64,000 bases of DNA from Octopus sinensis (Eukaryota), in assembly GCF_006345805.1 (NCBI RefSeq), contig NC_042997.1, positions 13,516,001 through 13,580,000 on the forward strand, given 5' to 3'. The notes under the pieces were generated by a model. The model did no database searches. It worked only from the letters and a program-made list of their open reading frames with translations, and was not told the DNA's origin. Shown here piece after piece: positions 1,540 to 60,567 of this stretch (its first letter is position 1; every line of letters begins with the position of its first letter). A program made the position numbers and the translations under genes.

Positions 1540-2070
1540 ATTTAACCGGTAGCACCTTCTCTTGAAAATGGACAAAATTTGGCACCGTGGTTTTATCAAG
1601 TACCTGTTGGGTTCATATCTTTGAGCAAGAGACAGAAACAATCTATGCAATGGAAACACCCCTCCTCGTATCCTCCAAAGAAGGCCAAATTTATTTCATT
1701 AGCAGGTAATGTGACGGCATCAGGTTTTGGGGATGCAAAAGGCATTGAGTTTATTGACTGCTTGAAAAAGGGCCTCACTATCAATGGAGAATACTATGCC
1801 AACTTGTTGAGGCAGTTACAAAAGTCTATCAAGACAAAACGCCCAACAACACTGATGAAAGTGCACTTGGTTGATCAGGATAATGCTCCAGAACTCCCGT
1901 GCTTCGTTTCAAAGGTTGCTGTGTGTGACTGTGGATTTGAACTGGTTGATCACTATTCCTATTCTAATTTGTCACCATTTATTCCCCAACATGAAAAAAG
2001 CACTTGGCTGAGAACCAGTATCACCGCCATAATGACGTAATATCTGCTGTAGATGTCTTTTTTGACCACA
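1540..2070 (+). mobile_element. Mariner transposase fragment (catalytic region, degraded)
   Basis: ORF 1579-2040 reads MQWKHPSSYPPKKAK...GIEFIDCLKKGLTINGEYYANLLRQLQKSIKTKRP...QDNAP...CGFELVDH(Y)SYS, matching mariner DD34D-domain motifs; no TIRs recognised. Confidence 0.85.
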
Positions 2071-14517: not shown

Positions 14518-15188
14518 GTGTGTGTGTGTGTGTGTGGTGTGTGTGTGTGTGAGTGTGTGTATGTGTACCTATACACGCATGCACACACATATATACATAC
14601 ATACAGTTACGTCATATTTACCGCTTCTTGCCTTTTTATATAATTCTGAAAATATTATTTATGTAACGCACGCACTCATTAATTTTTTACCCATGGATAT
14701 GTGCGCGTGTGCGTATGTGTGTGAGTGCATTTTTTCCGGGGGCAAGGAAGAAAACGTCACAATAAAATACAGAAACGGAAGTTAAAACGAAGAAAGACGT
14801 ATATTCTCAATGTTGATGGAAAACAGCTGATTGTTATTTATATAAAATAAAGTCAAATGGCGCACAATATTCAATAGAGAAAACTAGATTTTGAATGATT
14901 TTGTCATTTATCTCAAGGAACTCAGTTTGCGAATAATGGCATTTCTCATGCGAAATAAGTTCGTAAAACACTTAGCTTAGATAGAGATATTACGCCATTC
15001 TATCTAATCTTCCTCCAGTCTCCAAAAGCTTTACAAAATGTAATCTTACCTTCTCTTGATTCCGCTTTCTCACCTGCTTCTCTTCCTTTCTCGGCTCTTT
15101 ATTTTTCTCGTTTGCATTTCTCCCGTTCTTACAGTTTCTTCTTTCACTACTTTCGATTCTATTTTTCTCTTTGGGCTTCAAGTTTCCT

Positions 15189-15226
<38 letters not shown>

Positions 15227-15339
15227 GTATCACATATTTAGTTTCTGGGAGGAGTTCTGCCAAGCTTAGGCATAGAAGATTACGCAAACACAAGAACTGG
15301 GCACTACTGCATAGTGCCAAAATGCCTATATCATGACCA

Positions 15340-15377
<38 letters not shown>

Positions 15378-15392
15378 TGTGTGTGTATGTAT

Positions 15393-15470
<78 letters not shown>

Positions 15471-16225
15471 GTACATACATTCGGTATGATAGATCGTAGT
15501 CACTAAATTTTTTCTATTTTCTTCCCTCGTTTATTTCTGTGTTCCTTTCTGTAGGCCCGAACCGTAAAATACTTTCTCACTTCCCGAGCGTTAAACCAAT
15601 ACATCTGTTTGTTGTTTACACACCCGTCTTCGTCTTTTGTTTTTTGTTTTTTTTTTGTAAATTCTCACTATATAAATACATACATACCTTTTACCTATTT
15701 TGGTTATGATATCATTTTTTGAATTCTTAAATTTTATTTTTATACAACATAACAATATTGTTTATAAACAATCACCCATAGAGCTCCTAAAGAAAATTTC
15801 CTCTGTATTAACATCTTAGGTTTCTTAGTGTCTTGCCCTTTAACTGGTAAGTAACATCATGATATAAAGTCTACTCCTACCCTGCTTCTTTTAATAGACA
15901 GTTACTTATATCCAACTGCCTATTCCTGATGTCCTATTTCTCTCCCGAGGAAAAGGGATACATATGATAATATATGTCAACTCACTCCTGTCTTTTATTC
16001 AAAATAGACACAGTCTTCTAATCTTAGATTTAGCTGTTGATAAAGAGATAAATGAAATAGAAATGAATTACAACCCTTACAACCCCACTATGGTCCATGC
16101 GATTCTTAGAAGTTGTAGTCTAAGCTACAATAGCGATAACATGAAATTATTCCATCTTCTTGCTCTGTTAAGATATTTAAGAAAAATGATGTGTCCTACT
16201 TGTTAAAACTCCATTTATTTATTTG

Positions 16226-16311
16226 TGCAGTTGAAGATGGCACTGCATTTAAATTAAAGTAATGATTTCATTGTTCAATTAAATGGAGTCGCTTGAAACG
16301 TTCGTATTGCA
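16226..16311 (+). ncRNA. Degenerate minimal hammerhead ribozyme motif (family 1)
   Basis: TGCAG-TTGAAGA-long stem II-GAAAC-GTTC-GTA-TTGCA; C3 changed to U and loop III no longer palindromic. Confidence 0.6.
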
Positions 16312-16586
16312 TTACTATTTCATATCCAGTACCTTATGTTGATATATATATATAAATGTATGTGTGTGTATAATATATACATATATATGTATATATGTGT
16401 GTGTATATGTATATATGTATATACACAAATACATGCATGTGTGTATGCAGGTATATGTCTTTGTATTTAAAAAATCTTCTTATATTCTTTGACTGTTTTC
16501 AACCACTTATTTATTCAACGCTAGTACTTGTGATTGTATATAGATGGGTACTATAACAAAATAAGCAACAGGTTATCAAACAGCAA

Positions 16587-16672
16587 TGCAGTGCGGCCGT
16601 TTGTAGTGGCTCCATTTAATTGTACAATGCAATCATTACATCAATTTAAATGAAGTGCCATCTTCAGCTTCA
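16587..16672 (-). ncRNA. Degenerate minimal hammerhead ribozyme motif (family 1), inverted copy
   Basis: Minus strand: TGAAG-CTGAAGA-TGGCACTTCATTTAA...TTAAATGGAGCCACTA-CAAAC-GGCC-GCA-CTGCA; G12 and U16.1 mutated. Confidence 0.6.
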
Positions 16673-17077
16673 GAAATAAATAAATGGAATTTAACAAGTA
16701 GCACACTTTTTTCCGTCTTCTAAGATTAAATACCCAATCATGCTCTGGTGTTTTCACAGCTTTACTGCATTCAAAATTTAATTTCTTGTCTGTAAATTAT
16801 GAACACTAGGCACCATGCTAGTTCGGTATAATCTGCAGACCCCACTAGTAGAAGACTACATACTAGATAAAGTCTTCTAAATATAAGTAACTACGTCACC
16901 ACTCTTTTTATCTTGACTCCCACCTATTTCTTCTACTATTCTCTAAATAATAGTAGTCTTAACTAGATATGCATTATTTTCTAAACTCAGTTATAACAAA
17001 AGAAAACAATGTAAATATTTTGTTTTCCATTATTGATGTAAATTTATTCAAAAAAGGTTTATCTTTTATGTTTGAAT

Positions 17078-17161
17078 TCATCTGACGAGAACGTTTCTTT
17101 CAGATTGATGTAATGTTTTCATTAATTAATTAAATGGAGGTGCTTGAAACGGCCGTAATGA
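17078..17161 (+). ncRNA. Minimal type-I hammerhead ribozyme motif with intact core (family 1)
   Basis: TCAT-CTGACGA(17082-88)-imperfect stem II-GAAAC(17146-50)-GGCC-GTA-ATGA; stem I TCAT/ATGA, palindromic loop III, GUA cleavage triplet. Confidence 0.75.
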
Positions 17162-17234
17162 CTTGACACCTGTACATCTTTGTGACTTATATATATATAT
17201 GTGCGTGTGTGTATGCATGTATATATATGTATAT

Positions 17235-17283
<49 letters not shown>

Positions 17284-17296
17284 GATACGTACATGC

Positions 17297-17331
<35 letters not shown>

Positions 17332-17364
17332 TATCTATATATCTATGTGTGTGTGTTCAAATAT

Positions 17365-17535
17365 TGGTGTCAAATCTTGGCACAGGACCAGTAAGTGCTC
17401 AACTGGTAATTATTTTATCGACCTCGAAGGAATGAAAGGCAAGTTTGACCTTGGAAGAATTTGGACTCAGAACGTTAGACGGACGAAATACTGCTGAACA
17501 TTTGGTCGAGTATGTTAACAATTCTGCCAACTATC
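17365..17535 (-). mobile_element. Diverged SINE family A copy
   Basis: Reverse complement of family A core (CTGGTAATTATTTTATCGACCTCGAAGGAATGAAAGGCAAG...ACTCAGAACG). Confidence 0.75.
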
Positions 17536-18392
17536 CGTATATATGTTTGAATATTGATATTTTGGTTGCGATAAAATGAGAATGACCAATATTTGGTATT
17601 CCAAGGAAATCTGTGTATAACCAAGTTCCAACCAAGTACCAGATATGTAATCTTCCTCTAATTTACTTTCGGTATTATACGGGCCATTAGAGTAATTCCT
17701 ATTAAATAACTGGTATTAATTTTCCCATCTGAGAAAAAATAATCCTACAACCAATACGATAGTTGCCTTGGATTAATAATGCAAAATATGTCAGTTTCCA
17801 TATACAGAATTAAAGAATGTTTACTCTATGTGATGTGCAATGAGGTCGATCCCAGACTCATGGTTGCAAAACAATTTCGAAACCACATACTCCCACATAG
17901 ACTTTGGGTTAAGTAGCACAAAATAGAAACCCACAATCTATAAAATCGTTGATAAACCCGTACAACCATTGGAGCAGCAAAGTATTATGCATTCACCCAC
18001 TTAGTTTTTATTTCAACTATTAACGACATCGATGCCGTTGCAGCAAGACAATCACAAACATACTTAACAACAGAGATCCCACATTAGCCAGTTTCATTTA
18101 ATATTCCAGCACAGACCGGCATTTAACTGAGATTTTCTTCTAGTCTAATCCGAGTGGTGTCAGCCTACTGAAGATCACGATGAAAATTTCATGCGCTATA
18201 ATTTTTTTCTGTCTTCGGAAGTATATATCTATGGATGGTGCATGTACGTGAAACGGGCTTCTTCCAGTTTTAGCCCAGAAAATTTTGGTTGGCCGTAGGC
18301 CCGAGGCTGCAGTAGCAAACACTTGGCCTTGGTACCACGCAGTGGGACTAAATACTGCACCTGCGATATATGTACGTACATACGGGTGTGTG

Positions 18393-18438
<46 letters not shown>

Positions 18439-18889
18439 TGTACCAGCAAACACATGTTGATATGCATATATACATAACTCTTTTACTTTTTTCCTCGATC
18501 CATTTAATGGAAAGAGGTCATGCTGGGTACCGCTTTCAAAAGAAAATCTAAAAACTTTGCTTACAACAACCATCTGAGCACAAACTAAGCTCCACAATGC
18601 TTCACTTCGGCGATCGGACGAAAACTAATGTCTTCAAAGCGTACATATAAGGCACGTTCATATGTATGTGTGCGTATTTACGCGGCACGCGTGTATGTGT
18701 GTATGTTTGTGTGTGTATATGTATGTGTGTGTTTGAGTGTGTGTATTTGTAAGTCGCTCTCAATTATTTCAAGAAGCGAGGAACTCCCAGCAGAGAGGGA
18801 GAGAAACTTAAACTTGTAGTAAAACCAACTCTATTGAGCGTATTTGTTGACTTTCTTCATTAAAACGATTTTACACCCTTACACACACA

Positions 18890-29955: not shown

Positions 29956-30061
29956 GCTTAGAGCACCTAAGTTTCCCAAGCGGTCACCCATCTAAGTATT
30001 AGCCAGGCTCGACGTTGCTTAATTTAGGTGATCGGTCGAGAACCTGTGCTATCAACGTGAT
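29956..30061 (-). pseudogene. 5S rRNA pseudogene (5'-truncated, diverged)
   Basis: Minus strand ATCACGTTGATAGCACAGGTTCTCGACCGATCACCTAAATTAAGCAACGTCGAGCCTGGCTAATACTTAGATGGGTGACCGCTTGGGAAACTTAGGTGCT aligns by eye to invertebrate 5S; first ~11 nt missing, substitutions in the control region. Confidence 0.9.
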
Positions 30062-30519
30062 CTTTAATTTATTGAAATTTTCCAATAATTTCGTGAAAGA
30101 AAATGCTGTGAGAAAGGCCTTCTTCATCACACTTTAACAAAATTAAGTTTATAGGCGGTACTGCGAAGTGAATTCGCTAAAGACCGAAAACGTACGACAA
30201 GAGCCGAAATATGACGAGCATTATCACATATAACTGACAACATACACGACAATATTACATGGGTATTTAAATTGCCGAAATCAACTTTAAAATGATAACT
30301 TTAAATTAATTTACAGAAATAAACTGCTGTATTAATCATATAGATAAATATCTCGTAATTATAACGAAAGTGCATTTCTGAGAAAGCAATTAGCATAAGG
30401 GTGCAGTAAGTGTGAAAAGAATCAGTGTTAAAGAGATAATGTATATAATGATATATTAAGTACAACTAATACGAAGAGACATTGAAAATATAATCAAATC
30501 ACATATTGAAATAAATTAC

Positions 30520-59792: not shown

Positions 59793-60567
59793 CAGTAGTT
59801 TTATTTTTATAGTGTGCTTTCACTTCACTACCGAGCGCAGCTCTGTGTGCCTTGGGTATGTGCTGTGATTTGTTGTGATGCTCTGATGGTTATTGTATGG
59901 AAAGTGTTCTGCGTAGGATGTGTGCAGTGCCTAGTAGTGCAATTTTCTGTATGTTATATGTGTTTGTAAGTCCTGGTGTTTTTGTTATGTATTTGTCTGA
60001 ATATTTTTTTATCATGTCTAATGCACCTACTATGATAGGAATTTTTTCTGTTTTCAGATTCCACATTCTAGTTACCTCTATTTCCAGGTCTTTGTATTTT
60101 GAGAGTTTCTCCATTTCTTTTAGAGACACGTTGTCATCTGTCGGTATTGATACATCAATTAGAAAGCATTTTTTTTCTTCATGATCTCTGACAACTATAT
60201 CTGGTCTGTTGGCCTTAATTTCTCTATCTGTGTGTATCGGCATATCCCAGAGTATGGTTGCTTTCTCGTTTTCTGTGACCTTTTCTGGTGTGTGCCTATA
60301 CCATCTTTTTTCTGTTGTTATTCCATAATGTTGGCATAGCTTCCAATGTATGTAGGTTCCAACTCTGTCATGTCTGTGAATATATTCCTTCTTAGCTAGG
60401 ACTGGGCAGCTAGAGATAATATGATTTATTGTTTCTTGTCCATCTCCACATATTCTGCAGTTACTTGTAATATTTCTTTTCATTACATGTTTTTGGTAAT
60501 TTCTGGTGGGGAGGCTTTGGTCTTGTGCTGCAATTAAAAATCCCTCTGTTTCTGCTTTGAGTCCTGA
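59793..60567 (-). mobile_element. R4/Dong-clade LINE 3' fragment with open zinc-knuckle and REL endonuclease frame (ORF 59890-60483)
   Basis: CRICGDGQETINHIISSC, RHDRV, ILWD...ANRPDIVV...CFLIDVSIP...KYKDL; upstream LIAAQDQSL. Confidence 0.95.

Follow-up and report, generated by a model that had tools for sequence, protein, structure and literature searches.

Three hammerhead motifs within one kilobase

Three hammerhead-like motifs lie within 1 kb of the window (the whole 64,000-nt stretch of Octopus sinensis DNA analysed here), and the locus raises the question of what left them there and whether they belong together. The three are homologous and occupy the positions assigned to them in a preliminary description (Table 1), each with a stem II region of 57 nt, as that description had indicated. 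Its motif length of about 85 nt holds for the hammerheads themselves, but homology runs much farther, over about 670, 156 and 350 nt in copies 1, 2 and 3. Copies 1 and 2 share 84% identity across 130 nt, and copy 3 is 77–81% identical to them across 57–61 nt. Copy 3 keeps every core letter, as claimed. The consensus GAAAC-GGCC-GTA proposed for all three is present there, but not in copy 1, which departs from it in the loop, or in copy 2, which departs from it on both sides of the loop. Similarly, the stem I pairings described for copies 1 and 3 are present, but copy 2 reads TGAAG/CTGCA, with one mismatch. Among the three window copies the whole hammerhead core is intact only in copy 3, and the other two are broken.

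A strict hammerhead descriptor, one of the checks suggested beforehand, finds copy 3 as its sole match in the window, compared with a mean of 0.02 matches in shuffled sequence (100 shuffles, a match in 2). The companion check with Rfam returned zero hammerheads, neither at gathering score in the window nor at E ≤ 10 within positions 15000–18500, likely because of the length of the arm. The other Rfam output comprises microsatellite-driven miRNA matches under the cut-off and a single 5S rRNA-like match, while a repeat search across the window gave mostly microsatellites. Hairpin folds of the arms have z values of -2.5, -2.9 and -1.6 in copies 1, 2 and 3, respectively.

The three motifs are very probably the 3′ ends of 5′-truncated copies of two Hydra-clade Penelope-like families. 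The copies likely inserted independently of one another, and the terminal repeat of each family contains a type I hammerhead that has a 57-nt arm and is predicted to cut as a dimer. By alignment, copies 1 and 2 are members of family B and copy 3 is a member of family A. The family B majority reads CTGAAGA and GGTC where hammerhead 1 has TTGAAGA and GTTC, and the helix III self-duplex of hammerhead 1 contains mismatches; judging by its sequence, this hammerhead is likely inactive, as is hammerhead 2. Copy 2 is likely a separate insertion, its 84% identity to copy 1 being like that among other family members (84–88%). The inverted family A piece abuts the 5′ truncation point of copy 3, in which the predicted cut falls at 17157/17158 and the helix III self-duplex is calculated at -14.1 kcal/mol. 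The locus itself is ordinary repeat debris, and the useful facts sit at the level of the families.

Table 1. Features of the window, in window coordinates
Feature	Position	Strand	Remarks
Mariner-type transposase fragment	1546..2040	+	Pfam Transposase_1
Copy 1, 3′ end of a family B Hydra-type Penelope-like element, 5′-truncated	15676..16343	+	3′ UTR, hammerhead and end of about 37 nt; 75–87% to family B loci, up to about 730 aligned nt
Hammerhead 1	16226..16311	+	Stem I TGCAG/TTGCA; core TTGAAGA (C3 to T), GAAAC-GTTC-GTA; stem II 16238–16294
TA/TG microsatellite immediately 3′ of copy 1	16344..16452		Likely target site
Copy 2, short family B 3′ end, 5′-truncated	16554..16709	-	82–87% to family B references
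Hammerhead 2	16587..16672	-	From sequence: CTGAAGA kept; GAAAC to CAAAC; GTA to GCA; one stem I mismatch
Stretch of 98 nt separating copy 2 from the inverted tail piece	16710..16807		Match neither family reference
Family A long-tail piece, 37 nt, inverted	16808..16844	-	92% identity to the L017 tail, E 2e-9
Copy 3, 3′ end of a family A Hydra-type Penelope-like element, 5′-truncated	16845..17196	+	77–85% to family A loci, about 350 nt
Hammerhead 3	17078..17161	+	Intact core: CTGACGA 17082–17088, GAAAC-GGCC-GTA 17146–17157; stem I TCAT/ATGA; palindromic ACGGCCGT; stem II 17089–17145, base weakened
TA-rich microsatellite, overlapping and continuing past the end of copy 3	17188..17345		Likely target site
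Common interspersed repeat	17395..17540		Up to 17 matches in fetched loci; presumably a SINE
5S rRNA-like sequence	29958..30066	-	63.9 bits, ends damaged; likely pseudogene or head of a 5S-derived repeat
Non-LTR retrotransposon ORF, C-terminal part	59890..60567	-	With zf-RVT

Two families and their insertion ends

Used as queries against the animal's own genome (2.7 Gb), copy 3 yielded 1,480 first-look candidates and copy 2 yielded 633; with the best 40 of each set scored, there were at least 45 and at least 42 matches, respectively. The majority sequences of families A and B both keep intact cores. Core identity is 0.975 versus 0.872 at other non-CpG positions in family B (n=30) and 0.935 versus 0.863 in family A (n=18), a contrast that includes subfamily differences and is drawn from copies picked through upstream sequence. 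The two consensus sequences match only in a 101-nt stretch from arm to tail, which is 79% identical.

Family members have a common 3′ end and variable 5′ ends. Past the predicted cut, 3′ ends of family A fall at +36 to +42 in 25 of 40 copies and at +298 to +307 in another six; those of family B fall at +31 to +44 in 53/86 and at +125 to +135 in 24/86, the 3′-end reference for this family being 135 nt long. The optional tail is longer in both families than the published 30–40 nt. A TA repeat is found at the 3′ junction of 55 of the 86 family B copies and 25 of the 40 family A copies, corresponding to the insertion into (TA)n that is a trait of the Hydra clade. Among 81 loci, 17 have copies paired in inverted orientation 5′-to-5′, and there are two convergent pairs and four pairs on the same strand. 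With 5′ truncation, partial tandems, inverted 5′ copies and an optional tail, the families show the habits of Penelope-like elements. Contigs from four runs, whose RNA origin is only a guess, cover family B at 80% similarity, some of them across the cut; ends, strand and level cannot be read from them.

In two other loci (L012, 1650–2189; L044, 1610–2374), fragments of other Penelope-type endonucleases stand in the microsatellite directly after the hammerhead tail, and that of L012 is a Pfam GIY-YIG match. These GIY-YIG ORFs, together with an endonuclease in L118, were considered as parents of the families and rejected as other elements inserted downstream. Microsatellite sites after hammerhead tails seem to collect nested insertions.

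Three motifs inside 1 kb, one of them with an intact core, might suggest that the locus works as a single unit, its ribozymes perhaps partnering in a host transcript. However, the motifs derive from two families and do not all point the same way, the cores of copies 1 and 2 are broken, these two copies diverge from each other as other family members do, and other Penelope-type fragments likewise follow such tails directly (L012, L044). With two of three cores broken and two families represented, the notion of a functional cluster of three finds no support, and a shared function is most improbable.

Parent coding elements

An endonuclease with the Hydra-type motifs (CxCX5C, no CCHH, and CxxC-E-N-CxH) is encoded in family B loci L073, L087 and L091. 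Of 30 family B loci, 12 have a Hydra-type endonuclease upstream of the family sequence and on its strand; of 30 family A loci, 6 do (2 of these 6 are duplicates). The distance to the hammerhead is 1.0–1.9 kb. Farther upstream, RT fragments occur in family B (L138/L161, L135/L164, L143/L170) and in family A (L159). They are 56–69% identical to the RT of a sister family, and L136 reads RW-I at the RWK site. In L136/L241, an inverted copy is followed by a terminal repeat, an ATG 182 nt after the cut, an internally deleted ORF and a 3′ repeat. No intact ORF of family A or B was found among 129 scored candidates. The preliminary description had seen no RT or GIY-YIG ORF beside the motifs; tblastn with seven probes likewise gave no Hydra or Neptune RT or endonuclease match in the window, because each copy is 5′-truncated inside the 1.0–1.9 kb 3′ UTR.

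Complete ORFs do occur in sister families. L274 has a 947-aa ORF with RWK, DKT, YRDD, CxCX5C, CxxC and CxH, and a homologous 60-nt arm; an RT with both RWK and DKT in a single ORF is present in L274 and L280, and open Hydra-type frames of 960 aa are found in L279 and L280. Repeat-to-repeat units in sister families measure 2.9 kb (L282), 4.4 kb (L278), 4.7 kb (L272) and 5.6 kb (L279). In several loci (L073, L151-L156, L274) Asn-rich, microsatellite-like sequence has enlarged the linker that joins RT to endonuclease, without closing the reading frame. In a young Hydra family with an open frame of 778 aa (L281, L282, L283) and in the 3′ repeat of L284, CCGAAGA replaces CTGAAGA in the hammerhead core (U4 to C). 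L282 has CCGAAGA in both terminal repeats (positions 981 and 3844), which makes it a naturally occurring variant of the core in an element that was mobile recently.

Pfam recognised neither RT nor GIY-YIG in seven Hydra-type proteins, and a PDB sequence search with Hydra-type ORFs returned nothing relevant. By eye, the motifs of the L274 protein agree with those of the published Hydra-1_Obim. ESM Atlas look-alikes of L282 (0.96–0.98) fall in part into clusters with GIY-YIG (26–50% of members) or RVT_1 (18%). The putative placement in the Hydra clade rests on the published motifs (Craig et al., 2021; PMC8557442), the by-eye match to Hydra-1_Obim and the ESM Atlas look-alikes. In an endonuclease tree of 29 rows from this genome, every branch with a linked hammerhead has long arms; with neither a short-arm family nor a root, the tree is silent on the direction of arm change.

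The preliminary description had proposed a non-coding, self-cleaving mobile RNA family. Under such a retrozyme-like reading, small self-cleaving circular RNAs mobilised in trans would have left the cluster, and the ORF-less window, the type I hammerhead in AT-rich sequence and the existence of internally deleted derivatives (L136/L241) are all compatible with it. However, short tandem units of 150–450 nt are lacking, same-strand pairs occur in just 4 of 81 loci, beyond the variable 5′ ends lie a long 3′ UTR and an endonuclease of the Hydra type, and direct repeats of the sister families flank coding units of 2.9–5.6 kb. Since the parents appear to encode an RT and a GIY-YIG-type endonuclease, the linked ORFs largely rule out a non-coding family, which now has very little probability left.

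Covariation and fold of the hammerhead

The structure suggested for the motifs was compared with 18 representatives of family A, family B and related families. Paired cells amount to 86.5% versus 73.1% in shuffled alignments and 34–49% in slid controls, and the covariation score is 0.48 versus 0.24 when shuffled (0 of 500 as high) and at most 0.16 in slid controls; related sequences can exceed a shuffle control without any structure. Measures of pair count and pair type were not above shuffles (180 and 209 of 500). Changes on both sides affect five of six pairs in stem I, five of nine in basal stem II and both inner pairs of the palindrome. In the apical arm they affect one of seven pairs (A-U, C-G, U-A) in the register GATGTAA/TTGCATT, which was adopted after viewing the alignment of the 18 representatives. 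An earlier apical pairing in the AATG/CATT register, with both-side change in 2 of 16 arm pairs, was abandoned when the wider alignment favoured GATGTAA/TTGCATT. Under the first structure, 54 decayed copies are 86.6% paired versus 82.1% when shuffled, and RNAalifold on these copies gave zero consensus pairs. The hammerhead-like fold lies 0.9–7.7 kcal/mol over the minimum-energy monomer fold in all ten sequences folded.

C3, U4, G5, A6, A9, GAAAC and GTA are invariant in all 18 representatives while the stems vary. Pairing of the palindrome is kept through the variants GGCC, GGTC, GATC and AATT in 17 of 18 representatives and 52 of 54 decayed copies, and more distant families retain self-complementarity as ATAT, ACGT, ATGT and AGCT. 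A palindrome that varies but stays self-complementary agrees with the published prediction of a helix III formed by two ribozymes (Cervera and de la Peña, 2014, PMC4209133; PMC6765202). The type I core CUGANGA / GAAA / NUH with a closing stem I is found in copy 3 and in the family majorities. The preliminary assignment to Penelope-type type I hammerheads is supported, as is a self-complementary helix III of a kind suited to cleavage as a dimer. Taken together, covariation in stem I, basal stem II and helix III supports a putative dimer-type type I hammerhead.

It might alternatively be supposed that the long-armed motif does not cleave and is retained in the terminal repeat as a protein-binding or promoter structure. 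The A and B consensus sequences do match only over the 101 nt from arm to tail, and in the account of the Anolis element, hammerhead mutations left in vitro insertion unaffected and no RNA-seq reads ending at the cut are reported (Frangieh et al., 2024; PMC11167929). This supposition is unlikely, however, as it sits poorly with core positions that are invariant in 18/18 representatives while stems change, and with a palindrome self-complementary in each of its four forms from GGCC to AATT.

Another possibility is that the long arm conceals a small retained intron, the removal of which would yield a normal short-armed ribozyme. The arms of families A, B and E contain a GT...AG stretch of 30–33 nt. 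Such a length would be very short for a spliceosomal intron in an animal, the GT reads GC in four sister families, and exact deletion of GT-AG is found in 0 of 24 short-spacer genomic copies. Although introns are known in Penelope terminal repeats (Cervera and de la Peña, 2014; PMC4209133), splicing of the arm is very unlikely.

Long stem II across the genome

Pattern searches with an exact core were made for two palindrome types, GGYC with spacers of 10–40 and 50–95 nt and AWWT with spacers of 8–36 and 45–70 nt. With GGYC there are 595 matches at spacers of 50–64 nt (control 0), 68 at 65–95 nt (control 2) and 24 at 10–40 nt (control 0), most of the last being deletion derivatives. With AWWT, 6,381 matches have spacers of 45–70 nt (control 16) and 2,390 have spacers of 8–36 nt (control 19). 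Long arms outnumber short ones for both helix III types tested (6,381 vs 2,390; 595 + 68 vs 24), and the long stem II is lineage-wide rather than peculiar to the window.

A hammerhead is present in 17 of 20 fetched Hydra ORF loci, where all arms measure 49–60 or 85–86 nt; none was found in the other three (L285, L288, L290). Stem II regions of 85–89 nt occur in families L213, L279 and L280. Ten arms that were folded gave z from -0.6 to -5.4, seven of them under -2. A young, abundant family (L292-L297) has a stem II of 16–17 nt and an AATT or ATTT loop and often forms inverted pairs. A Hydra-like endonuclease is found in one of its six loci, and both arm types likely coexist in the Hydra clade.

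Proposed mechanism and implications

For families A and B, the sequence evidence establishes the family assignment, the endonuclease and RT fragments upstream, the 3′ ends at fixed sites, the junctions rich in TA, the partners inverted at the 5′ side and the covariation. A tandem element would be transcribed through both terminal repeats, and the element protein may nick (TA)n DNA, which would serve as primer. Reverse transcription would start inside the RNA, either about 39 nt past the cut or at about +130 (B) or +300 (A), and synthesis would mostly halt early, at times with an inverted piece, producing ORF-less ends. By analogy with the Anolis element, in which reverse transcription starts at two internal sites beyond the hammerhead (Frangieh et al., 2024; PMC11167929), we infer that RT starts at the two fixed ends, that nicked (TA)n primes it and that the ORF-less copies result from early termination. 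Since the copies extend across the cut site, the template would be either tandem RNA left uncut or a circle formed by re-ligation. Pairing of two ribozymes through the 8-nt palindrome would create helix III, and the cut would fall after GUA, probably at a slow rate and assisted by protein; the ribozyme most likely acts as a dimer in tandem transcripts. Self-cleavage in pairs is predicted for thousands of long-arm copies genome-wide. The long arm most likely serves as an extension, structural or protein-binding, that the chemistry does not require; this is the weakest step of the scheme.

It is possible, although doubtful, that the Hydra radiation made of stem II a protein-docking module of 50–90 nt that licenses dimer cleavage and sets RT starts 90–260 nt apart. 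If this is true, one genome contains some 7,000 or more copies of such a module, and Rfam misses it. The short-armed (16 nt) Hydra-like families of the same genome provide a natural control for a docking arm, and the intact ORFs with long arms (L274, L280, L282) make the role of the arm testable. As long arms outnumber short ones and Rfam missed the window copies, ribozyme counts obtained with short-stem descriptors are likely too low. The related families supply natural covariation for the helix III dimer model, and the two fixed 3′ ends extend the Penelope internal-initiation model to another clade with much longer tails.

Comparison with known systems

The closest known system is the Hydra clade of Penelope-like elements with a C-terminal endonuclease, which includes Hydra-1_Obim (Craig et al., 2021; PMC8557442). 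As described there, it shares with the families of this genome RWK, DKT, a CxCX5C linker, the lack of CCHH, and CxxC and CxH around E and N, as well as (TA)n targets, a type I hammerhead with palindromic helix III near the 3′ end, and partial tandem and inverted copies. The preliminary description had called the long stem II atypical, and rightly so: by our count, every one of the 26 Hydra rows in File S2 of that paper has a stem II region of 12–26 nt (23 nt in Hydra-1_oBim), compared with 57 nt here and 49–85 nt in sister families. Units of 2.9–5.6 kb also contrast with a published size of “generally <3 kb”, which is a descriptive trait and not a motif. Asn-rich inserts and long 3′ UTRs set several families apart from the published Hydra elements, and the optional tail, at about 90 nt in family B and about 260 nt in family A, exceeds the published 30–40 nt (PMC8557442). 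No description of long-armed Hydra hammerheads was found in the literature searched, and supplementary figures outside that search may hold one. The clade itself is already known; what appears to be new here is that the ends of Hydra-clade elements combine a dimer-type hammerhead that has a long arm with an extended optional tail.

The minimal type I hammerheads of metazoan Penelope-like elements (Cervera and de la Peña, 2014; PMC4209133) share a stem I of 4–6 bp, an extra post-core nucleotide, a small palindromic helix III and a predicted dimer. They too are mostly single copies of truncated elements, with opposite-strand pairs 100–700 bp apart. Their helix II, at 7–8 bp at most in that account, differs from the interrupted hairpin of about 20 bp found here. 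A stem II region of comparable length, about 50–54 nt, is listed for the spike-moss elements PLE-X1_sMoe and PLE-X1_sTam, whose hammerheads are flagged as deviating from canonical (File S2 of Craig et al., 2021; PMC8557442). These elements belong to another clade, are endonuclease-less and rDNA-targeted, and are depicted with a short stem and a 29–35 nt loop; they are a published precedent for arm length and not for the Hydra lineage.

The Poseidon element PAc of Anolis (Frangieh et al., 2024; PMC11167929) shares two fixed 3′ ends past the cut and AT-rich targets. Its RT starts bound a tail of 30–40 nt, whereas the ends here are about 90 or 260 nt apart, and its ORF begins inside stem II, whereas the family B ATG lies 182 nt after the cut. 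For this element, uncut RNA is reported as the template, and cleavage as requiring protein. Animal non-LTR retrozymes (Cervera and de la Peña, 2020; PMC7229834) share the type I hammerhead, low GC and many copies. As described, however, they are non-coding tandem repeats of 150–450 nt, whereas the elements found here are the ends of coding elements.
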